Assembly: GCA_934101575.1 (NCBI GenBank)
Contig: CAKORJ010000001.1
Location: forward strand, 474,519-538,518
Origin: an uncultured Bacilli bacterium
GTDB lineage: Bacteria; Bacillota_I; Bacilli_A; RF39; UBA660
Length of the DNA stretch: 64,000 nucleotides
Direction: 5' to 3'
This document shows positions 3,702 through 62,292 of the stretch, in pieces. The stretch's first letter is position 1. Every line of letters begins with the position of its first letter. The translations under genes and the position numbers were made by a program. A model generated the notes under the pieces. That model searched no databases. It was not told where the DNA came from and saw nothing but the letters and a program-made list of their open reading frames with translations.

Positions 3702-4352
3702 TTATAGACTTTTTTCTTCTGTTAATTCAAATATCAATACTAAATAATAAGTTCTATAGTCTGGTCTAGCACAGGTTATTAGAGTTAATTGTTTTTTTTG
3801 ACTGTGTCTGTATACGTCTACTCCATCGCCTTGTCTATCTTTATATTTTTTTACTAATTGATATGTGTATCTTTTTTCTTTATATGTTACATATGCTAGG
3901 TCTCCTAATGATAGGTTATCTAGTCTTGTAAAGTATCCATTCCATCCTGTTCCACTGTGTCCTGCTAGGATAAAGTTACTGTATTTATCATCTGGATATG
4001 TTGATCCTTCCATAATGGCTATATTTTGATCTACATTATTTCCAGAAGTTCCATATTTTACAAATCCCCTATTTAAATTTATTTTTGATATGTTTAATCT
4101 TCCTATATAGTTATAAGTTATTTTTTTCTTTTTTACTCTTCCTGATGTATCTCCAGTTGGTATTGTTTTATTACTTTCTGTAGGTGTTACTGCTTCGACA
4201 TACTCTGGTTCTTGTGATAATAAAATACTCATTTTTTCATAGACATTTGCTCTTTTTTCCATGAAATAATTGTGTCCTACTATAGCTATACCACAAATTA
4301 TTATGATAAGAGCAATTGTTACAAATTGTTTATTATTAAGTCCATCACTCAT
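3702..4352 (-). CDS. Sortase-family transpeptidase (membrane anchored)
   Basis: N-terminal TM segment. Catalytic His context ILAGHSG, catalytic Cys in the TLITC motif (QLTLITCARP), and a downstream Arg. Met5 is preferred as start (GAGGTG just upstream); the track ORF begins at 4364. Confidence 0.8.
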   Translation of the reverse strand: MSDGLNNKQFVTIALIIIICGIAIVGHNYFMEKRANVYEKMSILLSQEPEYVEAVTPTESNKTIPTGDTSGRVKKKKITYNYIGRLNISKINLNRGFVKYGTSGNNVDQNIAIMEGSTYPDDKYSNFILAGHSGTGWNGYFTRLDNLSLGDLAYVTYKEKRYTYQLVKKYKDRQGDGVDVYRHSQKKQLTLITCARPDYRTYYLVLIFELTEEKSL

Positions 4353-4428
4353 AATACACCTCATTATAGTAATATTATAACTATATTTTTTTAAAATCTC
4401 AATATTTTTGTAGAAAAAAAGATAGAAA

Positions 4429-5930: not shown

Positions 5931-6732
5931 ATGAGACTCCTATATAATAGTTTATGGCTTCGGATAATGCTTTGGTTGTGTTATAAACTTCTTCTAGGGT
6001 GTTTTCTGGCCCGCCTATTTCAACAAGGAACATATTTTGGCTGTAGCCTTGGTTAAAGTTACTATGTTTTTGATAATAAGTACTACGTACTAAGTTTTTA
6101 TAGTGTTTATTTAGATAACTTTCCATTATTTTTAGATTATTTACATTTTTTTGATAGTTTTTATTTTTAGTTCCTACTAGAAACATCATAGTTGCATATT
6201 TTTTACCTTTTATGGTTGTAACTGATGGTGGGCCTGTCACTGAATCTCTATGTACATCGAAGAAATACTTTATTGTTTTATGTCTTTTTTTTGTATCTTT
6301 TAAATATTCAAAACTTACTGTATAGGTATTTGGATAATCTAGTCCTCTTTTATTTACTTCTTTTGTTATACTTCTTGTTTCTAAAATAGAGCTCACTCCT
6401 AAAGTTTTTAATTCTTCTTTTAATATGTTACTTGCTGTTTTTACAGTCGGTGCTATATTATAAGGAGTGCTTCCATATTCTTCTGTTTCATGAGTATTAT
6501 ATATATAAACAAGTGGTGATTTAGTTTTCTCTTGTTTTTTTTCTGTAGTTTTTTTTATGGGTTTTTCTATGGAGTTACTTAGTTTTTGATTTTTTACTGT
6601 ATTTATTACTACAGACTGCTTATTATCTTTTAAGACAAAATCTATGATGTTGATATCTTTAAAAATCTTGTTTATATAGATTAAGGATATTATTAATAAA
6701 AAAAGACAAAAGAGATTCTTTCCTTTACTCAT
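5920..6732 (-). CDS. spoIIP: Stage II sporulation protein P (engulfment peptidoglycan hydrolase)
   Basis: 270 aa with an N-terminal anchor. SpoIIP signature blocks VYIYNTHETEEY and YFFDVHRDS are present. It sits directly downstream of gpr, as in Bacillus (rpsT-gpr-spoIIP neighbourhood). Confidence 0.8.
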   Translation of the reverse strand: MSKGKNLFCLFLLIISLIYINKIFKDINIIDFVLKDNKQSVVINTVKNQKLSNSIEKPIKKTTEKKQEKTKSPLVYIYNTHETEEYGSTPYNIAPTVKTASNILKEELKTLGVSSILETRSITKEVNKRGLDYPNTYTVSFEYLKDTKKRHKTIKYFFDVHRDSVTGPPSVTTIKGKKYATMMFLVGTKNKNYQKNVNNLKIMESYLNKHYKNLVRSTYYQKHSNFNQGYSQNMFLVEIGGPENTLEEVYNTTKALSEAINYYIGVSYEK

Positions 6733-6771
6733 ATCTTCATCACCATAATTAGTATAAGCTTTGGAATGTTA

Positions 6772-12923: not shown

Positions 12924-14681
12924 TTACATTGCTCTTTTAAATAGTTTTTCTAGTTCATAGAATGTATAATTTATTACTGTTGGTCTTCCATGAGGACATG
13001 TATAAGGGTTTTCACACTTTAATAATGTTTCTAATAGTTGTTCTGCTTCTTCTAGGGAAATATAATCATTTGCTTTTATGGCCATTTTACATGATAGATT
13101 TATGGCTACTTTTTCGTTAAATTTTTCTTTAGAAAAGCTTTTTTCTTTTATTACTATTTCTAATATTTTTCTTAATGATTCTGTTATATATCTTGGATTT
13201 ATCCATTTTGGATGTTTTCTTATTACTACTGTGTTATGACCAAATTCTTCATATTCTATTCCTATTTTTTCTACTACTTCTTTTTTGTCTTTTAGTTCTA
13301 GAAATTCTTCATTTGTGAACTCTAGTTTTATGGGGATTAGGACTTCGGTTAACTCTTTTGTTTCTTTTCCTAACTCTTTTTTGTATTTTTCATAATTTAT
13401 TCTTTCTTGCGCTGCATGTTGGTCTATTATATACATTCCATCGTCATTTTCTCCGACTATATATGTATTGTGAACTATTCCTACTGGTGTTATCTTTTTT
13501 ACTGTTTCTTTTTCTTTTGGAGTTTCTACACTATATATTTGTTGTTCTTCTTCTACATTAAAGTCAAATGATATTTCTTCATATTCTGGTTTTACCTGTT
13601 CTATACTTTTGTCTTTGAAATCTAGTGCTGTGTTTATGGTAGTTATTTTATCTATGTTTGATACTACTTTTTCTGATGATTTTATTTCTGGGACTAATAC
13701 TAGTTTTAGTAGTGCATTATTTATTGTTTTATATAATAGATCTTGTAATTCTTCTTGTTTTGAGAACTTTATGTCCATTTTTGTTGGGTGGACGTTTACA
13801 TCTATTATTGATGTGTCTGCTTCTATGTTTATTACTACTATTGGGTTTCTTCCTATTCCTAGATAAGTATGATATGCTTCTAATATTGTTTTTATTATAC
13901 TATTATTTCTTATATATCTTCCGTTTACAAACATTGTTATAAAGTTTCTTGATGCTCTGTTTACTTCTGGATATGATATGTATCCATTTATTTCATAGTC
14001 ACTGTTTTCAGCATTTATTTTTATCATTTTTTTTGTTACATCTAAGCCGTATATACTATTTATTACTTTTAGGAGATTCCCTGAGCCATCTGTGTTTAAT
14101 AGTGTTTTGTCATTGTTTAGTAGAGTAAATTTAACATTTGGATATGATAGAGACATTTTGTTTACATATGATGTTATGTTAGCTAGTTCTGTATGAAGGT
14201 TTTTTAAATATTTTAATCTTGCTGGGGTGTTATAGAAAATATCTTTTACTGTTATTTTTGTTCCTGTTCTTAAAGATGACGATTCTACTTTTTCTATAAT
14301 TCCTCCATTTATTGTTACTGTTGTACCTTCATTATTATCTGATGTTTCTATTTGCATTTTGGCCACTGATGCTATGGAAGGAAGTGCTTCCCCTCTAAAA
14401 CCTAGAGTGTCTATATGAAATAGATCTTCATCTTTATATAATTTACTTGTTGCATGTCTTTTTAAACAGTTTTGGGCATCTTCTCTACTCATTCCTATTC
14501 CATCATCTGATACACATATTTCTCTTGTTCCTGCGTCTATTAATGATATTTTTATATTTGTTGCTTCGGCATCAATACTATTTTCTACTAGTTCTTTTAC
14601 TACATTCATTAATGTTTCTACTACTTCACCAGCGGCTATTTTATTTGATAGATTGATGTCCATTACTTTTATTTTGTTCAT
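12924..14681 (-). CDS. mutL: DNA mismatch repair endonuclease MutL
   Basis: 585 aa. GHKL ATPase N-domain (IAAGEVVE, ELVENSIDA, DDGIGM, GFRGEAL). C-terminal endonuclease motif DQHAAQERINYEK, plus CPHGRP. Confidence 0.93.
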   Translation of the reverse strand: MNKIKVMDINLSNKIAAGEVVETLMNVVKELVENSIDAEATNIKISLIDAGTREICVSDDGIGMSREDAQNCLKRHATSKLYKDEDLFHIDTLGFRGEALPSIASVAKMQIETSDNNEGTTVTINGGIIEKVESSSLRTGTKITVKDIFYNTPARLKYLKNLHTELANITSYVNKMSLSYPNVKFTLLNNDKTLLNTDGSGNLLKVINSIYGLDVTKKMIKINAENSDYEINGYISYPEVNRASRNFITMFVNGRYIRNNSIIKTILEAYHTYLGIGRNPIVVINIEADTSIIDVNVHPTKMDIKFSKQEELQDLLYKTINNALLKLVLVPEIKSSEKVVSNIDKITTINTALDFKDKSIEQVKPEYEEISFDFNVEEEQQIYSVETPKEKETVKKITPVGIVHNTYIVGENDDGMYIIDQHAAQERINYEKYKKELGKETKELTEVLIPIKLEFTNEEFLELKDKKEVVEKIGIEYEEFGHNTVVIRKHPKWINPRYITESLRKILEIVIKEKSFSKEKFNEKVAINLSCKMAIKANDYISLEEAEQLLETLLKCENPYTCPHGRPTVINYTFYELEKLFKRAM

Positions 14682-14693
14682 GATTTATCCCTT

Positions 14694-15260
14694 CTATTTA
14701 GTAAAGTATCTACATAGGCTATTTGAATTCTCATAGTCATTTATTACTTCTTCACCGTTTACTTTTAATATTATACATAATAGTTCTTCTTTAGATGGTT
14801 CTATAGCTCCATTATTTTTTTGACATGATTTTATTATTTTATTATCTTTTACTGTTGTAGTTACTAGACATGTTCCATCTGCAATTTGTTTTTCTTCTGT
14901 TTGGCTTTCATTTGTATAGTTTGTTTTGTTTAGCAAATCTCCTTTTATTTTTAGGTTAAACTCACTGCCATTTATATCTTTTAGGCTTAGCCTTTGACCA
15001 TTGAAGCTTAATTCTTCAAAGTATGAGTTGTAGGCTTTATTATTATCATTACTTATTGTTATATTTTTTTCATACTTTCCCATTTGTCCTTGTCTATATG
15101 TATCGTATGCTGCTTCTATAGTTGAATGAAGCTGGATTAGTTCTTTGTCTCTTACTTCTTTTCTATATCTTGATACTCCGACTATTGCTATTGTTGATAG
15201 TATTCCTAATATTACTATTATTGCCATTAGTTCTACTATTGTAAATCCTTTATTCTTCAT
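14694..15260 (-). CDS. Prepilin-type N-terminal cleavage/methylation domain protein (type IV pilin or pseudopilin)
   Basis: 188 aa. MKNKG|FTIVELMAIIVILGILSTIAIV is a textbook class III signal: G-F-T-x-x-E followed by a hydrophobic helix. It lies 12 nt upstream of mutL on the same strand. Confidence 0.8.
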   Translation of the reverse strand: MKNKGFTIVELMAIIVILGILSTIAIVGVSRYRKEVRDKELIQLHSTIEAAYDTYRQGQMGKYEKNITISNDNNKAYNSYFEELSFNGQRLSLKDINGSEFNLKIKGDLLNKTNYTNESQTEEKQIADGTCLVTTTVKDNKIIKSCQKNNGAIEPSKEELLCIILKVNGEEVINDYENSNSLCRYFTK

Positions 15261-15313: not shown

Positions 15314-16012
15314 CTAGTAATTTATTTCTCCTTTTCTTATAAATTCTCTTAATATTTTAGTTATTGCTCTTTTTTCTATTCTTGATACATAACTTCTTGA
15401 TATATTTAGGTCTTTTGCTATTTCTTTTTGCGTTTTTTCTTCTTCGTTGTTTAGTCCATATCTTTTTATTAGTATTTCTTTTTCTCTTGGTGTTAGTTTT
15501 TTGATATATTCTTTTAAATCTTTTATGTTGTCTTTTAGATGCATTTTTTCTATATAGTCTGGTTTTGGTGTTTTTAAAACATCTAGTATTGTTATATCGT
15601 TTCCTTCTTTATCATATCCTATTGAATCATCTAAGGATATGTTATTGTTATTTTTTTTGTTACTTCTAAAGAACATTAATATTTCATTTTCTATGCATTT
15701 GGCACAGTATGTTGTTATTTTTGTTCCATGTTTTTTGGAATATGAATCTATTCCTTTTATTAATCCTATGGTTCCTATGCTTATTAAATCATCATTATCT
15801 ATATTAGTGTTTTCATATTTTTTTGTTATATGGGCAACTAATCTTAAATTATGTTCTATTAGTTTATCTCTGGCTGTTTTATCTTTTTTTAGTAATAGAT
15901 TTATATATTTTTCTTCTTCTTCTTTTGATAATGGTTCTTTAAATACGTTATTTGAATATGATGTTTTGAATAACATTAGTGTTTTTAGTATTGAAAGAAT
16001 ACTTGTTAACAT
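15314..16012 (-). CDS. sigK: Sporulation sigma factor SigK (pro-sigma-K), uninterrupted
   Basis: 232 aa with a pro-sequence-like hydrophobic N-terminus. NNVFKEPLSKEEEEKY, LIEHNLRLVAHITKKYENT, DLISIGTIGLIKGIDSY, CIENEILMFFR, ISRSYVSRIEKRA are near-collinear with B. subtilis SigK. Confidence 0.8.
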   Translation of the reverse strand: MLTSILSILKTLMLFKTSYSNNVFKEPLSKEEEEKYINLLLKKDKTARDKLIEHNLRLVAHITKKYENTNIDNDDLISIGTIGLIKGIDSYSKKHGTKITTYCAKCIENEILMFFRSNKKNNNNISLDDSIGYDKEGNDITILDVLKTPKPDYIEKMHLKDNIKDLKEYIKKLTPREKEILIKRYGLNNEEEKTQKEIAKDLNISRSYVSRIEKRAITKILREFIRKGEINY

Positions 16013-26456: not shown

Positions 26457-28862
26457 TTAAATCATTTTATACTTTCTATAAATTATATAACTTCCTCCAC
26501 CAATTAGTAATAATCCTCCAACTATTGTTGAAATAGCTACTACACTTCCTGTGTTTGGAACACTGATTTTTTTAGGACTATTGTATATTTTTAAGTGGTC
26601 TAGGTCAGTATCATCTTTTTCTTTTGATTTTTCTAATTTATATAAGTTTGATTTTGCACTTATTAATTTGATATTACCATCTGTTAATACTCTGAATTTA
26701 ACTTCTGTTTTTAATGTTTGATATCCTTTTGGTGCTAGTGTTTCAGTTAGAGTATAATCACCAATTGGAATTGCAAAGTCTTTTGGAGTTCCATCAGATT
26801 TATATTTTAGGAATGTTTCTCCTTTTTCATTTTTTATTTCTATTTTTGCACCTTTTATTTCTTTTTCGTTAGTAATATCAACTTTGCTTATTTTCATATC
26901 GATTGGTTTATTTGTTAGTGATATTGTTACTCTTTTTTGATATGTTTCATATTCAAATTCTTTTAATGCATCAGGTATTACTGTGTTATCACCATCTATA
27001 TATTTTTGTAATAGTGCTTTATCATTTTCATCTACTTTGTTATCTTTATTAACATCCGATGCGTAGAATTGAATCTTTGTTTCTTCTATTTTTTTAGCTA
27101 TAATGTCTTCGATTACTTTTATATCCTCTGCATCAATCTTTCCATCATTTGTTGGATCTCCTAAACGATATTTTTCATTTTCTATCATGATTTCGTCTTT
27201 TTCTGGAACAGCATTTGTTCCTTGTGATTTATATTTTAAAGCATCATTATCTTTATTTAATGTAAATTCATATGGCTCTTCTAAAATTTTATACCATGAA
27301 TCTGCTTTTACTTCGACTAATATATAATCTCCATAAGGGATGTCTACAAATTCAGCAATTCCTCTTTCATCTGTTTTTACGTTTTTAACTACATTACCAT
27401 GAATATCTACTGCTGGTTCTTTTTTAGGATTATTCTTTAATAATTGGAATTCTACTCCTGGAATTACTTTCTTTGTTTCAACATCTGTTTTAAGTATTGT
27501 TACATTACCATATGGTATGTTATAAACAGCTTGTACTACTTTTTCGTGATCTTCTAATATTTGTGCTCCTAGTGGGGTTCCAGAAGTGTTTTCTTTCCAA
27601 TCAGCTGTTACTTTTACTGGAATACAATTATTTTTTGCTCCTAGTTTTTCTAATTGATCACTATCTAATGCATAACCTTCAAGAATTGGGTCTATTTCTT
27701 TTACATAATATGTTCTTGATTCACCAAGTTTTAGTGGATAGTATAAATCATTCCATTCTATTATACCATTTTTGTCAGATTTTTTTGCTGGGAGTTCTTT
27801 TCCAAGATAATTTACAGCTTTTTTACTACATGTATCATCACTAAATATTCCAAATGTTGCACCTTTCATATTTTTACCTGTATACTTATCAATTTTATGA
27901 ATCTTAACTGTTCCTTTACCAATTTTTTCATATTGATATGGTGCATAACCTACTACTGTTTTATATTTAGGTACAAAATATTTTGTAGTTTGTATTCTTG
28001 TTCCTTTTCTTGTGTAAACTGTTCCGCCATCACTATATGTTCTTGACATGCTTATTGGTGTAGTAACACTGTCATCTTTTGAAGTGATTGTTAACGTATT
28101 TCCACTTTGTGTTGCTGTTACACTTGTTGGGTTAGAACCTAATTTAAATTTAGAAAATACTGCCTTTGTATCGGTCATACTTCCTGAAAAGTTTCTATTT
28201 GCCTCGCTATATTTTAGTATTGGTTTATCAGTAACTTTTTGTGCTGCTTCAACTGATGCATAGGCGAAACTAGGTATAACTTCATGATTTCTCATTTCTG
28301 TTAATAAATTGTATGCTAAGTCAACTACTGCCGATGCACTGCTTCCTGCAACTAAACTTGATATTGTTGATTTGCTAACTGAACTTTCAGATAGAATATT
28401 AAATCCACCATCAGCTTGTTGTTTTGTAGCCATCCATACAATTAACTGTGTAGCTAAAAAGTTATTGTTACATGTTGGTGTTGAAGTATTTGCTTGATAT
28501 CCGTATGCTAATGCTCTTGCAACCAAGTCACTATTAACATTTGCTGCGGATGCTATATAACTAGGATTATCACTATTGTTTAAATAATGTGCACTTCTTT
28601 CAACACAATATACTAAGTGTCCACTATTAGATACATAACCAGTAAAGTGGTCTGATGGGGTATTGTTGTTTTCTTCTTTCCACTCGTTCCAAACACTATT
28701 TATTATAAAGTATTGATGTTGGATACTACCGCTTGCTGGTCTTATTACACTTTTATCGCATTGTTTAACTGAGATTTCAGCTGCATCTACCTTTCCTATC
28801 CCTATTATACTTACTAACGCCATAAGTAATAACGCCATAAATATATTTATTTTTTTTGACAT
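26457..28862 (-). CDS. Sortase-anchored adhesin: thioester (TQxA-type) domain + Cna-B/SpaA-like repeats + internal dockerin-like module + VPNTG sorting signal
   Basis: Start placed at Met7 of the track ORF (AGGAG 7 nt upstream), followed by a signal peptide. Thioester motifs are LVYCVERSAH (Cys) and LATQLIVW (Gln), with ALAYGYQ between them. Three Ig-like repeats: GTVKIHKIDKYTGKNMKGATFGIF, GNVTILKTDVETKKVIPGVEFQLL, MKISKVDITNEKEIKGAKIEIKNEKG. C-terminus is VPNTG + hydrophobic stretch + RKYK. Confidence 0.8.
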   Translation of the reverse strand: MSKKINIFMALLLMALVSIIGIGKVDAAEISVKQCDKSVIRPASGSIQHQYFIINSVWNEWKEENNNTPSDHFTGYVSNSGHLVYCVERSAHYLNNSDNPSYIASAANVNSDLVARALAYGYQANTSTPTCNNNFLATQLIVWMATKQQADGGFNILSESSVSKSTISSLVAGSSASAVVDLAYNLLTEMRNHEVIPSFAYASVEAAQKVTDKPILKYSEANRNFSGSMTDTKAVFSKFKLGSNPTSVTATQSGNTLTITSKDDSVTTPISMSRTYSDGGTVYTRKGTRIQTTKYFVPKYKTVVGYAPYQYEKIGKGTVKIHKIDKYTGKNMKGATFGIFSDDTCSKKAVNYLGKELPAKKSDKNGIIEWNDLYYPLKLGESRTYYVKEIDPILEGYALDSDQLEKLGAKNNCIPVKVTADWKENTSGTPLGAQILEDHEKVVQAVYNIPYGNVTILKTDVETKKVIPGVEFQLLKNNPKKEPAVDIHGNVVKNVKTDERGIAEFVDIPYGDYILVEVKADSWYKILEEPYEFTLNKDNDALKYKSQGTNAVPEKDEIMIENEKYRLGDPTNDGKIDAEDIKVIEDIIAKKIEETKIQFYASDVNKDNKVDENDKALLQKYIDGDNTVIPDALKEFEYETYQKRVTISLTNKPIDMKISKVDITNEKEIKGAKIEIKNEKGETFLKYKSDGTPKDFAIPIGDYTLTETLAPKGYQTLKTEVKFRVLTDGNIKLISAKSNLYKLEKSKEKDDTDLDHLKIYNSPKKISVPNTGSVVAISTIVGGLLLIGGGSYIIYRKYKMI
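26547..26561 (-). other. Cell-wall sorting motif VPNTG of the adhesin
   Basis: GTT CCA AAC ACA GGA on the minus strand, followed by 23 mostly hydrophobic residues and RKYKMI. Confidence 0.7.
26991..27161 (-). other. Dockerin-like double EF-hand module inside the adhesin
   Basis: GDPTNDGKIDAEDIKVIEDIIAKK and SDVNKDNKVDENDKALLQKYIDG. These are two D-x-N-x-D-G/N-K-[IV]-D-x-x-D calcium loops, each followed by a helix, spaced as in type I dockerins. Confidence 0.6.
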
Positions 28863-28940
28863 TATATCACTCCTATTCATATAATCTAGACTAATTATAA
28901 CTTATTATTTTTAGAATAGCAATGATTTTTTTGATTATTT

Positions 28941-56873: not shown

Positions 56874-56917
56874 AAAAAGATATAAGAAGTTTTAATGATT
56901 TCTTATATCTTTTTTTA
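56874..56917. terminator. Bidirectional rho-independent terminator (copy 1 of a duplicated hairpin)
   Basis: Perfect 12-bp stem AAGATATAAGAA (56877..56888) / TTCTTATATCTT (56900..56911) with A-run and T-run on either side. Serves the convergent SEDS gene and the glycine-rich protein gene. Confidence 0.65.
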
Positions 56918-59449
56918 TTCTATATTAAACTTTTGTTTATCATAATTGTAATTATGAGTTATTTCTTCTTCTGTTAGTGCTTTTCCATATAATTTCATTT
57001 GATTTATTTTTACATTTGAATAACTTGATGTTTGATATCTTCCTATTGTTAAGGGATTATTCGAATGAGAAAACGCGCTTGATGTGTTTGTTCTTCTATT
57101 TTTTAATACACCATTTATGTATATACTTTCTACGTTATCTTTATAAGTTGCTACTACATTATAAGTCTTTTTTAACTGTATTGTTCCGCCGGATAGATAT
57201 GGAAAATCTGAAGTTGATTGTCTTGTTCCGAATACTACTGTATTATCAGCATTTAATTCTATTGTGTAACCGAACCATTTAACAAATAGTACACTTCTTG
57301 AATTTTTTACTATAGATTGTTTTGAAAATGTTAAGTCTATTGTGAATTCTGTTGGGGCAAGTGTTTGAGAATATGGTATTGTTGCATAATCATCTACCCC
57401 ATCTAATAATAGATAGTTTTTATACCAACTTGATCCCGTTACTGTAGCATTTCCACTTTTACCACTTAAATCTTTCCATGTTGATGTTGAGGATAAATGA
57501 TTTTCTCCTGAATTTGAGAATCCATCTAACCAAAGGTTTAGATTATCCTGAACATATCCATTTATGTTGTTATCGTATGCTGTTATTCTTCTTCCATTTG
57601 ATGTTTGTACTGTGTCTTCTTCTGTTATTGCTGTAAAGTTTTTATTGTCACTTGATACATATGTTTTTGTGTTATGATATACTCTACTATCTCCAAAATA
57701 ATTCCATACTGCTACTTCATCTAAGTCATATGTCTCTTCTAAATCTACTGTTATGCATTGATTAGTGGATGAACTTGATGGCATTGAGTAGTTTCCGTAT
57801 GTTATATCTCCGTCTGTTATTTGTGAATATGCTCTGGTTGTATCATTATATTGAGAAGTTGTTCCTGTTACGGTCTTTCCTTTTGCTATGTTTACTCCAT
57901 CTTTTATTGCCTGTAATTCTATCCAATGATTATCATTATTACTACTATTATAGCCACTACAGTCTTTTATATATCTCACATTATTTAATTTAGTATTTAC
58001 TTTTTTGGGTTTACGTCCTATGTAAATGATTTTTGCATAACCATCTTTTTTAGTTTGATCTTCTTTTATTTTTCCGTTTAGGAAATATTTATTACTATAA
58101 TGCATTGTTGCGTTTGTATGAGTTATTGTTGTGGAATTTTTTACTGAATTCACTCCGGCATAGCCACTTATATATGAGGATCCTCCACAGGAATAGGTTT
58201 CTGAAGTCCCTCCGCCATAGTAGCCTCCACCTCCGCCTGGACCGTATTTTGAGCTTACTATTGCTCCTACCCCAAATCCAGAATCTGTTCCGCTTGTTCC
58301 TGTTCCACCAGCTGTTTGTGAACCGCCTGTACATGTATAACTTCTATCACTTCTTGTATAATAGCCTTGACTTCCGTATAGATATCCGCCTGCTCCACCG
58401 TTATAACTGTATCCAGAACTTGCTGTTCCCATATAGTTACTTGATCCTGCTCCGCCTCCGGCTACCATTATTCTTGAAATCAATGATTTTGTATCATTCC
58501 ATGTTCCACCTACTAATCTAACATCTGTTGCTCCTCCGCCTGAACCATAGTATGTGTTTCCTCCAGTATACTGAAGACTTTTTCCACCACCATTATAGCC
58601 ACCGTTTTCTCCACAACATGTTTTTGAGGAACTACAAACGCACCTTTTTCCAGCACCACCTACATAAATATATAATTTTTCTCCTTCTTTTAGATTTATA
58701 TAGCCTGATGTTATTGATCCTTTTCCACCTTCGTATAATTCATTATCTTCTTGGTAAGATGCTCCTCCTTGAGCCCCTCCTAATTCTACATAATAATATC
58801 CATCTCTTAAAACTGTATACTCTTGAGCATTTCCAGTATAGGTAAATGTTTTAGGCTCTCCTTCTCTATCCATACTTTCTGGTCTTTGTTCTGCTTCTAT
58901 TTTTAGTTTTAAGAAGGCTTTATAATCCTCAAGTTTTGATATCTCTTCTTCTTTAGACTTATCAAGCCATATTCTTAATTTATAGTTTATTATTTCACTT
59001 GCATATATTACATCACTGTCAATTATATTTTTTATTTTTTCCAAGGACATTGGTCCATATTCTTCACCATTTATTTCAAGTCCTACTTTTATGTATTTTG
59101 TATCAAGTACTTTTCCTGTATAGGTACTTGGTACTTCATTTATTAATTTTAAATCATATTTAGCTGGGGATGATCCAATATTTTTTAGATTGAAATCATA
59201 TGTTTCCTCTTGTAACAAGCCTTCTTCATCACCCATAATAGATATTTTTTTATTGATTGTTTCGTAGTTTTCGGTTAGTTTTAATTTTACACTTCCTGTT
59301 TTTATTACTTGTTCATTACTATCGCTATTAACTTCCTTTAAAATAGCATAACTAGTACCACAAAAAAGAGATACTATTCCAAAAAGAGCAATAAAAAGAC
59401 TTATTATATATTTTTTGTTCTTAATGACCCCCCCCCCCCGAGAAAACAT
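56915..59449 (-). CDS. Secreted glycine-rich-domain / discoidin / LamG-like protein, paralogue 1; poly-G tract in codons 4-7 (phase-variation candidate)
   Basis: 844 aa from the ATG at 59449. Signal-like IISLFIALFGIVSLFCGTSYAILKE. An N-terminal ~170-aa beta-rich domain (VIKTGSVKLKL..AFLKLKIEAEQ) is TasA/camelysin-like in pattern. The Gly-rich domain includes FTYTGNAQEYTVLRDGYYYVELGGAQGG, LYIYVGGAG, GGGATDVRL, and SRIMVAGGGAG. The F5/8-type-C-like domain includes NVRYIKDC..HWIELQAIKDG..QCITVDLEETYDLDEVAVWNYF. The LamG-like C-terminus includes LNLWLDG..LLLDGVDDYATIP..YGKALTEEEITHNY. The SD (AAGGAG) actually serves a GTG at 59462, which is out of frame with 12 G. Confidence 0.85.
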   Translation of the reverse strand: MFSRGGGVIKNKKYIISLFIALFGIVSLFCGTSYAILKEVNSDSNEQVIKTGSVKLKLTENYETINKKISIMGDEEGLLQEETYDFNLKNIGSSPAKYDLKLINEVPSTYTGKVLDTKYIKVGLEINGEEYGPMSLEKIKNIIDSDVIYASEIINYKLRIWLDKSKEEEISKLEDYKAFLKLKIEAEQRPESMDREGEPKTFTYTGNAQEYTVLRDGYYYVELGGAQGGASYQEDNELYEGGKGSITSGYINLKEGEKLYIYVGGAGKRCVCSSSKTCCGENGGYNGGGKSLQYTGGNTYYGSGGGATDVRLVGGTWNDTKSLISRIMVAGGGAGSSNYMGTASSGYSYNGGAGGYLYGSQGYYTRSDRSYTCTGGSQTAGGTGTSGTDSGFGVGAIVSSKYGPGGGGGYYGGGTSETYSCGGSSYISGYAGVNSVKNSTTITHTNATMHYSNKYFLNGKIKEDQTKKDGYAKIIYIGRKPKKVNTKLNNVRYIKDCSGYNSSNNDNHWIELQAIKDGVNIAKGKTVTGTTSQYNDTTRAYSQITDGDITYGNYSMPSSSSTNQCITVDLEETYDLDEVAVWNYFGDSRVYHNTKTYVSSDNKNFTAITEEDTVQTSNGRRITAYDNNINGYVQDNLNLWLDGFSNSGENHLSSTSTWKDLSGKSGNATVTGSSWYKNYLLLDGVDDYATIPYSQTLAPTEFTIDLTFSKQSIVKNSRSVLFVKWFGYTIELNADNTVVFGTRQSTSDFPYLSGGTIQLKKTYNVVATYKDNVESIYINGVLKNRRTNTSSAFSHSNNPLTIGRYQTSSYSNVKINQMKLYGKALTEEEITHNYNYDKQKFNIE
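59428..59439 (-). repeat. Homopolymeric G(12) tract (C12 on plus strand) in the 5' coding end of paralogue 1
   Basis: Counted directly: plus-strand C at 59428..59439. Confidence 0.97.
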
Positions 59450-59567
59450 TTGTTCGTTTCACTTTGATCACTCCTTAGTATTATTTATACATTTATTTTA
59501 TAACAAATTTGTTATTTATTCAAGGAATAATTCACCTTTATTTTTCTAGATATGTTAATAATTTTTT

Positions 59568-59854
59568 TTAAATAGTTTTGTCTTCGACTTTGTTTATAAC
59601 AAAACAGCTTTTGCCTAAATCTTTAAAGGATGCTCCTGAGTGATATAATATTTTTTTATCTATTATTATAAATATATCATATAGATTATCTTTTTTATTA
59701 TTGTTAGTTTATTATACTGAGTTTGATATTTTCTTATTAGTTCTTCGTTTGTATTTTTTTTGTGTAAAGTGTTATTTGGTTTTTTTGTTTTTGTTAGGAT
59801 ATCTAATAGTTTTTTCTCTGCATAGTTATCTATTATGATTATTTCTTGTTTTGA
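59568..59854 (-). pseudogene. Decayed 3' fragment resembling the C-terminal region of ORF6N-domain (KilA-N-related) proteins
   Basis: My minus-strand translation: SKQEIIIIDNYAEKKLLDILTKTKK..NSV**TNNNKKDNLYDIFIIIDKKILYHSGASFKDLGKSCFVINKVEDKTI*. It has two in-frame TAA stops, no start and no N-terminal part. The IIDNY.. and DRFLIID..VYHIGASLKDLGKK.FAF blocks are remembered from ORF6N-family C-termini (not searched). Confidence 0.35.
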
Positions 59855-59954
59855 TTATATTATTCGTTTGTTATCTCCTTTTTTGTTTGTAACTATACTA
59901 TATACTAATTGATTTTTATTGTAAAACTGGGAATTTTGTGTTTTGTATTAAAAA

Positions 59955-60046: not shown

Positions 60047-62217
60047 TTATTCTAAATTAAATCTTTGTTTATCGTAGTTGTAGTTGTGTGTTATTTCTTC
60101 TTTTGTTAGTTCACCACTAAAGATTTGGAATAGTTTTATATTACCTTTAAAGTATGTTCCACTTGGCCTTTTTCCTATATATGATTTTGATTCTGTCCAA
60201 CTCCAATATTCTGTTGAAGATAGTTTTGGTATTTCTTTGTTATTTACATATATTGTTTTATCAGTTAAACTTCTAAATATTACATCTACTTTGTAATATT
60301 TATCTAAAGTTATTGTTCCTGCGTCATACATATTTGTTGCGCTTACTAATGATGTGATAAATTTGTTATTTTGATATAGTCCTATTGCGGCATTATTTAA
60401 GTTATGTCCAAATATTATTTGACTGTCTGTACTATTAGTTTTATATATGAATGAATATGTCATTGGAAATGTATATTCTTTGTTTGTAAATGCTACATAG
60501 TCGTTGGTTCCATCGAAGGATAGACTATCATTTATCCAAGTTGCTCCGGATACTGTTGCTGTATAACCAGAAGAATTTGTAGATAGATTTTTCCAAGTTG
60601 TGGTTGTATTATTTCTTGTTGTTCCTGTATTTGCTAGTCCATCTAACCACATTGTCATTTTATTTCTTGCTGAATAACCATTTATGTTATCTATATAGGC
60701 ATTTACTCTTATTCCATTTGATGTTTGTATGACATTTTCATCAACTATTTCTGTGAAATTTGTATTATCACTTGATACGGAAGTTATTGTATTGTGATAT
60801 ACTCTTGTATCTCCAAAGTAGTTCCATACTGCTACTTCATCTAAATCATAGGTGTTTTCTAAATCAACTGTTATGCATTGATTACTATTGTCTTCGGATG
60901 TAGTTGTTGCAACATAATTTGAATTATCAATGTCCCCAGTTGTTAGAATTAGAAAATTACTAGTATCTGTATGTTGTGGGGTAAATGTTCCTGTTACTGT
61001 TTTTCCTTTGGCTATGTTTACTCCGTCTTTTATAGCCTCTATTTCTATCCAATGCTTACCTGGATTAGCACTATTGCTTGTACTACAATCTTTTATATAT
61101 CTAACGTTATTAAGTTTTGTGTTTTTTCTTTGAGGTTTGTTATGAGCATAAGTTATTTTGGCATATCCGTTTCCAGAGTTTTGTCCTTCTATCATTTGTC
61201 CACCTACAAAATATTTACTGCTGTAGTGGATTGTTTGATTTGTATGAGTGATTGTTGTTGATTCTTTTACCGAATTTACTCCGGCATAACCTGATATATA
61301 TGATGAGCCTCCGGCTCCTCCACCATTTCTTCCACTTGCTCCAGAGCCACCATAGTATCCACCACCTCCAGCACCAGAGCCATGAGAATAATCAGAATCG
61401 TATCCACCGTTTCCTCCTTTTGCTAGCTGTCCTTTTGTTCCTAAAACAACATATTGCGATTGATAACTATCGGCCTCTCGTTTCCCTGAGCCTATTGGAC
61501 CACTTGTTTTTTGTTGGCCGCCATGACCACCACCTAAAAAGTTTTCTGATAGATCTCCTCCGTCGGTTCCATATAAGGTCCCTCCGTCTCCTCCGGTTAC
61601 ATAATCATTAAATATTGCTCCGCCTCCGCCTCCTCCTGCTACCATTATTCTTGATATTAGCGAAGACATATCATCCCAAGAACCGCTTGTTAATCTTACA
61701 TCTGTTGCACCACCACCTGTTCCTGCTTGATGATTAGCAGAACCTCCACCATTAAATCCTCCTGATGTGTATTCTACATTTGATGAGGCTGTTGTTCCTT
61801 TTCCTCCAACATAAAAATAAAGTTTTTCTCCTTTTTTTAGTTTTATGTAACCACTTGTTTTTGCTCCTAATCCAGCATATGCTTTTGAAGCTCCTCCTGA
61901 TGCTCCTTCTAATTCTATATAGTAATAACCATCTTTTGGAATTGTATATTCTTGTGGTTTTCCAGTATAATTAAATGTTTTTTCATATTCAAATAGGGGT
62001 TCTATTTCTATTGTTTTTGTTCCTGTTATTTCATCTGAAAATAATGCATAAGAATTAGTTATTTTATATGATATAAATCCTACACTAAAAAGAAATATTA
62101 TTATAAATAAAGATAAAACTACCGTATTTAATTCTCTTATATCTTTATTTAATAGATTATAAAAATACCCCCCCCCCCGAACGAATGTTCACTGTCTTGA
62201 TTTTGTTCTTTCTTCAT
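60047..62217 (-). CDS. Secreted glycine-rich-domain / discoidin / LamG-like protein, paralogue 2; frameshifted at a poly-G(11) tract in this sequence (phase OFF or pseudogene)
   Basis: The ATG at 62217 (AAGGAGG 10 nt upstream) encodes MKKEQNQDSEHSF, followed by 11 G. The frame that is open from 62167 to the stop at 60047 encodes YFYNLLNKDIRELNTVVLSLFIIIFLFSVGFISYKITNSYALFSDEITGTKTIEIEPLFEYEKTFNYTGKPQEYTIPKDGYYYIELEGASGG.. and continues into the 540-aa track ORF (MSSLISRIMVAGGGGGG..). That frame is +1 relative to the ATG. Confidence 0.8.
62168..62178 (-). repeat. Homopolymeric G(11) tract (C11 on plus strand) in the 5' coding end of paralogue 2
   Basis: Counted directly: plus-strand C at 62168..62178. 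Confidence 0.97.
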
Positions 62218-62292
62218 ACTTTTACGTCCTCCTTAGTATTTTATATATTAATAATACATTAAAAATACTACTTTTTCAAGCAGTATTATTTT

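Follow-up and report, generated by a model that had tools for sequence, protein, structure and literature searches.

What does a run of eleven guanines do near the start of a surface-protein gene whose reading frame it breaks? The question is raised by gene B, one of two neighbouring paralogues in a 64,000-nucleotide (nt) stretch of chromosome from an uncultured Bacilli bacterium of the human gut (contig CAKORJ010000001.1, positions 474,519 to 538,518; this whole stretch is called the window). In gene B, a start codon with a strong Shine-Dalgarno (SD) sequence opens a leader of 13 codons that runs into the G tract and, shortly after it, into a stop codon. From comparison of sequences, we consider it probable that the G11 tract is a classical slipped-strand translational phase-variation (contingency) switch, stochastic, heritable and reversible, which in the window is set to off. 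The parts of gene B are as follows.

62251..62279, minus strand: predicted promoter, with -35 hexamer TTGAAA (62279..62274), a 17-nt spacer and -10 hexamer TATTAT (62256..62251); its activity is presumed.
62228..62234, minus strand: SD sequence AAGGAGG, read from the sequence, with a 10-nt spacer to the ATG.
62179..62217, minus strand: ATG (62217..62215) and 13-codon leader MKKEQNQDSEHSF, which ends in the conserved box AACATTCGTTC.
62168..62178, minus strand: G11 tract (C11 on the plus strand), the candidate switch, which at its present length puts the body out of frame; the on lengths are G9 and G12.
62149..62151, minus strand: TAA that ends the ATG frame at G11, leaving the 22-residue abortive peptide MKKEQNQDSEHSFGGGGIFIIY.
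60047..62167, minus strand: gene B body, 706 codons and a stop, in the frame that opens directly 3' of the tract.

The promoter is the best sigma-70-like match of the region (10 of 12 positions), and both its hexamers fall on blocks conserved across at least 20 cassettes of the gene family described below. After the ATG, the codons AAG AAA GAA CAA AAT CAA GAC AGT GAA CAT TCG TTC are followed by the eleven G, and at this length the ATG frame continues as GGG GGG GGG GGT ATT TTT ATA ATC TAT TAA. The open frame has TAT at 62167 as its first codon and extends to 60047, stop included. A length of G12 or G9 gives a full protein of 723 or 722 residues; the 723-residue form is present as a gene call in three of the related loci listed below (L004, L006 and L008) and on 8 contigs. 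The list of open reading frames (ORFs) of the window holds gene B only as a 540-residue remnant that starts at an internal methionine (60047..61669). An earlier reading of the same letters, here called the sequence-only reading, had described the G11 coordinates, the SD-linked ATG, the open frame of about 2.1 kb and the TAA stop, all correctly; it had also recognised the 540-residue entry as a remnant and expected an ORF of around 720 residues at G12 or G9, close to the computed sizes. Its remark that the window contains just two G or C runs of eight or more, at equivalent positions in two paralogues, extends to runs of seven or more: a homopolymer census of the 64 kb finds C11 at 62168..62178 and C12 at 59428..59439, the latter in gene A, and nothing else. 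With a G+C content of 27.7%, independent and identically distributed bases would give 4e-5 runs of G or C of at least 11 per 64 kb.

The position of the tract determines what an out-of-frame allele can make. Past the tract, gene B encodes first the charged n-region YFYNLLNKDIRELNT, then a hydrophobic segment some 19 residues long (62066..62122) and the motif SYALFSDE (62030..62053). The tract is thus located in the part encoding the cytoplasmic n-region, upstream of the hydrophobic segment, a refinement of the sequence-only reading, and no ATG, GTG or TTG is found between the two. Because the tract precedes the only export signal, without a start codon in between, an out-of-frame allele has no exported product from the SD-linked start. 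Another GTG, at 62204, comes into frame when the tract is G10 or G13, and gene callers take it as the start of products of 714 and 715 residues; as a designed second start it was rejected, having no SD sequence and lying where most leaders of the family read AGCAAAC instead of AGTGAAC.

Is the tract length fixed within the species? With an exact match to the upstream PrsW protein as anchor, 23 human-gut metagenome contigs were retrieved (sources Hadza, MERR22 and the k141 MEGAHIT series), which represent ten distinct places, L001 to L010. They are 98.6–100% identical to the window over the shared region, and the lengths of the two tracts are as follows.

Window: gene B tract 11, gene A tract 12.
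L001: gene B tract 10, gene A tract 13.
L002: gene B tract 10, gene A absent.
L003: gene B tract 11, gene A tract 12.
L004: gene B tract 12, gene A tract 10.
L005: gene B tract 10, gene A tract 12.
L006: gene B tract 12, gene A tract 10.
L007: gene B tract 10, gene A tract 12.
L008: gene B tract 12, gene A tract 13.
L009: gene B tract 11, gene A tract 11.
L010: gene B tract 13, gene A tract 10.

Eight near-identical full-length loci span both tracts, with 0–17 substitutions, and in their approximately 8.7 kb insertions and deletions are confined to the two G tracts, except where the end of the L006 contig aligns to a divergent tRNA stretch. L005, L007 and L010 differ from the window by 0–1 substitutions, yet have other tract lengths. 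Exact-protein look-up, in which the gene B body is identical throughout, places the 714-residue form (G10) on 13 contigs, the 540-residue form (G11) on 12, the 723-residue form (G12) on 8 and the 715-residue form (G13) on one; for gene A, the frame classes of 844, 773 and 848 residues are found on 13, 15 and 12 contigs, respectively. A single invariant length in related strains, which would have spoken against the phase variation put forward in the sequence-only reading, was looked for; instead, lengths from G10 to G13 occur at both sites between identical or near-identical flanks. Nor do the data support the idea that the eleven G are a miscalled fixed G12, the most frequent gene B length being other than the in-frame one. 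A scan of a genome collection with the protein yielded only four fragmentary, probably mis-binned loci (L011 to L014).

Length differences of this kind might be an artefact of sequencing or assembly, the gene having one fixed, probably in-frame length and the other calls being consensus errors of short reads. Long G runs are indeed error-prone in sequencing, all of the data are assemblies, and the variant contig L010 (G13/G10) has a coverage of only 4.9x. However, a fixed functional length with noise around it is disfavoured because the modal length is not in frame and the lengths, which span 10 to 13, differ by up to 3. The variation appears under two assembler naming styles (k141_ and NODE_/scaffold), and no other homopolymer in the 8.7 kb has an insertion or deletion in any of the eight full-length loci; the many A/T runs of 7–9 there never vary. 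The tract has also been kept uninterrupted across species, despite GGG being the rarest glycine codon (4.8% of the glycine codons in the genes of the window).

A control for such errors comes from paralogues in which the tract is broken; these are uniform in the same assemblies. P0397, from the same species and with the same leader, begins ATG AAA CGA ATA AAT GTT TTC TTT GCG GGT GGG GTC; its gene calls are identical in 23 of 23 contigs, and the PrsW-anchored locus has 10 configurations in 23 contigs. Among clusters formed at 90% identity, those with an uninterrupted tract hold several product lengths: 853, 852, 848, 845 and 820 residues for P0054, 734, 704, 701 and 677 residues for P0015, and seven classes for P0032. 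Clusters in which the tract is interrupted or missing are uniform or nearly so, with all listed members of P0082 at 859 or 861 residues, and P0028 (872 residues) and P0071 (867 residues) each having one length in 14 of 15 members. Together, these observations make an artefact very unlikely.

The second tract of the window is found in gene A, which has a similar organisation.

59495..59523, minus strand: predicted promoter of gene A, with -35 hexamer TTGAAT (59523..59518), a 17-nt spacer and -10 hexamer TAAAAT (59500..59495); 9 of 12 positions match, aligned with the family blocks.
59440..59476, minus strand: SD sequence AAGGAG (59476..59471), canonical GTG (59462..59460) and leader (M)KRTNVFS of gene A, read from the sequence.
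59428..59439, minus strand: G12 tract of gene A (C12 on the plus strand); a length of G11 or G14 puts the canonical GTG in frame, G12 does not.
56915..59427, minus strand: gene A body, with the signal segment ..GTSYAILKE, an extra N-terminal beta-rich domain, and ALK/LTK-type glycine-rich, discoidin-like and Laminin_G_3 domains.

Gene A is listed as an intact 844-residue ORF (56915..59449) starting at ATG 59449, which has no SD sequence. At G12 the body is in frame only with this internal ATG (59449..59447) and not with the canonical GTG, whose frame ends at the TAA at 59423..59421. In the window, gene A is therefore not intact, being off from its canonical GTG, and both switchable copies (B at G11 and A at G12) are off because their canonical starts are out of frame. 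At G11, leaders of the gene A type are in frame: that of L016 (P0054, MKRTNVFSGGGAIYNKK) starts with ATG and that of L009 (848 residues) with GTG; the locked paralogues start with MKRINVFS.. or MKRINVFF... The internal ATG (59447..59449, in ..ACA A ATG TTT TCT C..) is conserved within the leader DNA and is taken by gene callers as the start of 844- and 848-residue products beginning 'MFSRGGG..'. By analogy with contingency genes that have multiple ATG codons, one may speculate that it gives a third, low level of gene A expression at G12. Mutually exclusive expression of the two genes was considered and not retained: among the ten joint states there is no sample with both genes on, which is not significant.

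Gene A is not present in all strains. L002 (Hadza NODE_3, 708 kb), whose strain is 98.6% identical to the window, lacks both gene A and an ORF6N remnant, and ftsW/spoVE directly follows gene B there, a presence/absence polymorphism of gene A. In the window, this decayed ORF6N-family remnant lies in the 600-bp gap between the two genes (59571..59912, minus strand); its translation ends in ..DNLYDIFIIIDKKILYHSGASFKDLGKSCFVINKVEDKTI and has stops upstream. Intact ORF6N copies (Pfam ORF6N) adjoin cassettes of the family elsewhere, at 13375..14235 in L027 and 5799..6641 in L038.

Two copies out of frame, one of them missing from a related strain, could also be what is left of decaying pseudogenes, in which ordinary inactivating frameshifts have hit dispensable surface-protein genes and the tract length drifts; degenerate cassettes and gene remnants do exist (L033, and L038 at position 6741). 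Yet the 706-codon frame of gene B is intact in every allele, with no second lesion. Between the window allele (G11) and that of L002 (G10), both off, there are 23.5 synonymous and 10.5 non-synonymous changes over the 706 codons and no stop, insertion or deletion, and the ratio of non-synonymous to synonymous rates (dN/dS) is 0.12 for this pair of gene B alleles; as judged from these substitutions, gene B alleles that are off appear to be under purifying selection. Other samples contain in-frame alleles whose body is identical, and the promoter, SD sequence and leader are conserved across species. Decay is thus a highly improbable account of the two genes.

A scan of metagenome contigs for the exact pattern ACATTCGTTC followed by eight G gave 21 loci, of which 16 are relevant; L020, L022, L024, L026 and L036, with a G+C content of 33–60%, were discarded as chance matches to the pattern (5 of 21). 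More than 20 aligned cassettes have the same order: TTGAAA as the -35 hexamer and, after a spacer of 17 nt, TAGAAT, TAAAAT or TATTAT as the -10 hexamer, then a short 5' untranslated region, the nearly invariant TACTAAGGAGGAC, the start with a 13-codon leader, the box AACATTCGTTC and the G tract. In most members, the tract is preceded by a 39-nt leader like that of gene B. The box is read in two frames among paralogues, giving ..KHSF-GGG.. or ..NIRS-GGG.. (L015), and its conservation is therefore at the DNA level; a role in cis, in slippage or recombination rather than in the peptide, is conceivable for it. The only Rfam matches of the window are tRNAs, and the leader has none.

Several such cassettes can reside in one genome. 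In one SPAdes assembly, ERZ857965, twelve are found on ten contigs with a coverage of 10.9–12.2x (one with G9, nine with G10 and two with G11), and the shared coverage suggests that they belong to one genome. Elsewhere, the species of the window has another switchable copy, its third, which combines a type-1 leader with G10 and yields the 819-residue remnant P0453; this remnant is also recorded on a 706,636-bp NCBI contig that carries proteins of the window itself. Two locked paralogues follow the third copy, with tracts such as GGGGGGCGGG. The cassette and its signal peptide stand ahead of different mature proteins, of 333, 411, 488, 706, 923, 1232 and 1338 residues. With the same cassette before many exported proteins, a population could display many combinations of surface proteins.

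Other features of the cassettes concern their spread and loss. L032 contains two tandem genes, at 2121 and 6297, with an identical cassette (G11 in both) and identical first 200 or so residues, including a long Asn/Lys-rich n-region; after this point they diverge, into proteins of 1338 and 923 residues. In L017, L018, L027, L028 and L030 (from ERZ857965 and other assemblies), the contig end lies within 10–60 codons of the G tract; in the manner of a dispersed repeat, the cassette interrupts short-read assemblies. L038 has a decayed cassette at 6696..6770, with an SD sequence, ATG AAA TGA.. and G6, and L033 another at about 4200..4275, with the box and G10 and no promoter or SD sequence. As these decayed copies exist, cassettes also die or are recombined away. 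On balance, we lean towards a wider reading, in which a phase-variable export module of about 110 nt, built around the G tract, is found throughout the lineage, duplication or gene conversion having placed copies before at least a dozen different secreted lectin-, adhesin- or enzyme-like proteins per genome. If true, this widespread, spore-forming and as yet uncultured lineage of human-gut Bacilli would have a combinatorial phasome of simple sequence repeats like those of Neisseria or Campylobacter.

When the frame is read from the SD-linked start, 30 of the 38 cassettes are off and 8 are on, and in all 8 the tract has precisely the length that the leader demands; the contigs of L018, L027 and L028, which end just past the tract, were counted as off from their leader length and G10. 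This distribution is among several points that weigh against a switch. Alleles that are on are a minority, in ERZ857965 nine of the twelve copies are G10 and off, and the excess of off alleles would have to be explained by selection of the off state or by mutation favouring G10. The tract lengths are from consensus metagenome assemblies, made from short reads or by technologies not stated, and that of L010 is from the thinly covered contig mentioned above. Moreover, the window contains a mutL gene (12924..14681, minus strand), with no adjacent mutS, and the lineage is not obviously deficient in mismatch repair. The genus Campylobacter is not known to have MutS/MutL. The presence of mutL in itself neither supports nor refutes slippage. 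The genes upstream of mutL encode a pilin-like protein with an N-methylation motif (14694..15260) and then a sigma factor (15314..16012), and neither is mutS.

The frequency of off alleles is also the observation on which an effect at the RNA level has to be considered. In natural populations the three frames occur at similar frequencies, and the majority of alleles count formally as off, as would be expected if length were near-neutral or only tuned expression, the G run acting as a slippery site for stuttering of RNA polymerase or for -1/+1 ribosomal slippage on G GGG GGG. The run is formally a perfect slippery heptamer, and at G11 a -1 shift would restore the gene B frame. Nevertheless, the frame does matter, because every paralogue without a tract is fixed in the on frame. 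Furthermore, no stimulatory structure or known RNA element was found, and most documented cases of efficient slippage during transcription are on A/T runs. We therefore regard slippage of RNA polymerase or ribosomes as unlikely to be the main explanation, although it is compatible with phase variation at the DNA level and the two could coexist.

Slippage of the DNA itself is the favoured reading. Three of the properties that define contingency loci are found here: an uninterrupted tract within an ORF that is long enough to be hypermutable (about 8 or more for G/C), length polymorphism between identical flanks, and length changes that shift the frame while off alleles stay intact. Frequent, reversible switching within a clonal population, and protein output that follows tract length, would be expected as well. 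In the proposed mechanism, each gene of the family would have its own sigma-A-type promoter, a strong SD sequence, a short leader (13 codons in gene B, 8 in gene A), the G run and then a hydrophobic export signal. Slipped-strand mispairing during replication would add or remove single G:C pairs, and the SD-linked start would be in frame only at every third length (3k for gene B, 3k+2 for gene A). At the remaining lengths, translation would stop 6–11 codons past the tract and no protein bearing the export signal would be made. Paralogues in which point mutations interrupt the tract would be locked on. We infer the slippage mechanism, its reversibility, the rate of switching and the on/off states at the protein level, as well as the selective agent, which may be host immunoglobulin A (IgA), phage or niche glycans.

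The switched products resemble lectins joined to a glycine-rich domain. Both proteins are members of PF12810 (ALK_LTK_GRD; gene B 1.6e-40, 140 bits; gene A 6.5e-37, 128 bits; cut-off 24.5). Discoidin-like matches are weak in both paralogues, among them a weak F5_F8_type_C_2 match in gene B. Gene A has a Laminin_G_3 domain (PF13385; 2.8e-18, 66.9 bits against a gathering score of 27.6), and no Pfam match for Laminin_G_3 was obtained for the C-terminal part of gene B at E<=0.01. A sequence search of the PDB gave no match, and only the fold search was informative. For the part of gene B after the tract, an AlphaFold model was calculated from 31 sequences, with a mean predicted local distance difference test score (pLDDT) of 73 and a predicted template modelling score (pTM) of 0.74. 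Foldseek relates the N-terminal half of this model to the ALK/LTK TG domain (top matches 7nx1, 7nx3 and 7lrz, E ~1e-8) and the C-terminal half to the lectin-type beta-sandwiches of trans-sialidase and botulinum toxin (BoNT) Hc. The gene B product is probably a secreted or surface lectin-like protein.

The ends of the signal segments, ..SYALFSD and ..GTSYAILKG, presumably resemble a SipW-type signal motif. Membership of the SipW-dependent (TasA/camelysin-type) class is not claimed: NCBIfam gave no match for either protein, even at E<=1 for the SipW-dependent signal-peptide model, and there is no S26B (SipW-type) peptidase among the window proteins scanned. Variation within the family is not limited to the tract. 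P0002 and P0003 match gene B almost exactly in their N- and C-terminal parts but have another glycine-rich domain (87% identity across 57% of the length), a pattern which suggests mosaic recombination between paralogues as a second layer of variation.

The surroundings of the two genes are those of an ordinary chromosome of an endospore-forming monoderm, with genes for, among others, PrsW, SpoVE/FtsW, CotZ-like proteins, SpoIIP, Gpr, SpoIID, MurB, MurG, PheST and RelA. Two further genes on the minus strand lack a homopolymer tract: one for an 807-residue surface protein with a thioester domain, three SpaA-type domains and a dockerin (26457..28880), and one for a sortase (3702..4364). The plus strand of the window consists of 46% T against 26% A, and most of the long ORFs are on the minus strand.

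Several consequences follow for work with such genomes. Public assemblies alone show an uncultured, widely detected spore-forming gut lineage varying an exported lectin-like family, apparently by poly-G slippage. Gene callers split or truncate these genes (two loci give products of 540, 680, 714, 723, 773, 844 and 848 residues), so that pangenomes come out too large; the cassette also causes breaks in assemblies, and the sites that evolve fastest will escape strain-tracking tools. In biological terms, the family offers candidate targets for IgA or phage in an organism not yet grown, and tract lengths in deep metagenomes would be a direct read-out of such selection. To a specialist the mechanism itself will be unsurprising; the evidence from natural populations is unusually clean.

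Phase variation in the human gut has been mapped mainly as DNA inversions, in Bacteroidales and Clostridioides. For Clostridioides, only inversion systems are cited in a 2025 review of phase variation, and the literature searched contains no report of repeat-driven switches in gut commensal Firmicutes. Nor did searches aimed at this protein family or lineage bring up a description of it, in agreement with the sequence-only reading, which was not aware of such a switch having been described for the family. The mechanism is classical; the protein family and the host lineage appear undescribed for repeat-driven phase variation.

The closest design is that of the opa genes of Neisseria, which have CTCTT repeats in the region coding for the leader peptide and are present as 11 phase-variable, independently switching copies per gonococcal genome (PMC3960869, PMC11868660). 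As here, opa is a multigene surface family: every copy has a promoter of its own, and a hypermutable repeat in the 5' coding region sets the frame. The bodies of the family described here are likewise mosaic and recombinant. The differences are in the repeat, a pentamer in opa and a mononucleotide G here; in the product, a beta-barrel outer-membrane protein as opposed to ALK-type glycine-rich and lectin domains; and in the host, here a monoderm spore-forming gut Firmicute, for which switching is a deduction from assemblies.

In the poly-G phasomes of Campylobacter jejuni and Helicobacter, tract lengths differ among otherwise identical isolates (PMC6321876, PMC2823697). These systems share with the present one uninterrupted G/C runs of about 8–13 in very AT-rich genomes, many per genome and mostly in genes for surface structures. 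In Campylobacter, however, the tracts are at varied positions in unrelated genes, whereas here they are within one conserved promoter-leader cassette, and mutL is present.

The vlp genes of Mycoplasma hyorhinis have a conserved 5' expression cassette with a homopolymer and signal peptide, followed by divergent mature regions, and are independently switched on and off (PMC10502178). They resemble the present family in belonging to a low-G+C group, Bacilli in the broad sense, and in having a shared 5' cassette. In vlp the homopolymer is a poly-A in the promoter spacer, with transcriptional control, whereas the poly-G here is inside the ORF, with translational control; the Vlp products are lipoproteins, in contrast to the large folded lectin-like proteins predicted here.

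The sialidase gene nanH3 of Gardnerella has a poly-C of 8–14, is on only at 9 or 12, and varies in tract length within and between strains (bioRxiv 10.1101/2020.09.16.300947). It too is from a Gram-positive commensal and has its homopolymer near the region coding for the signal peptide. Unlike the family described here, it is a single gene with the tract after the signal peptide, so that its off alleles still make the signal peptide, and its variation within a culture was shown by experiment, whereas at the present locus the variation is seen between assemblies. The locus thus works like opa, the poly-G phasomes, vlp and nanH3, but outside their protein families.

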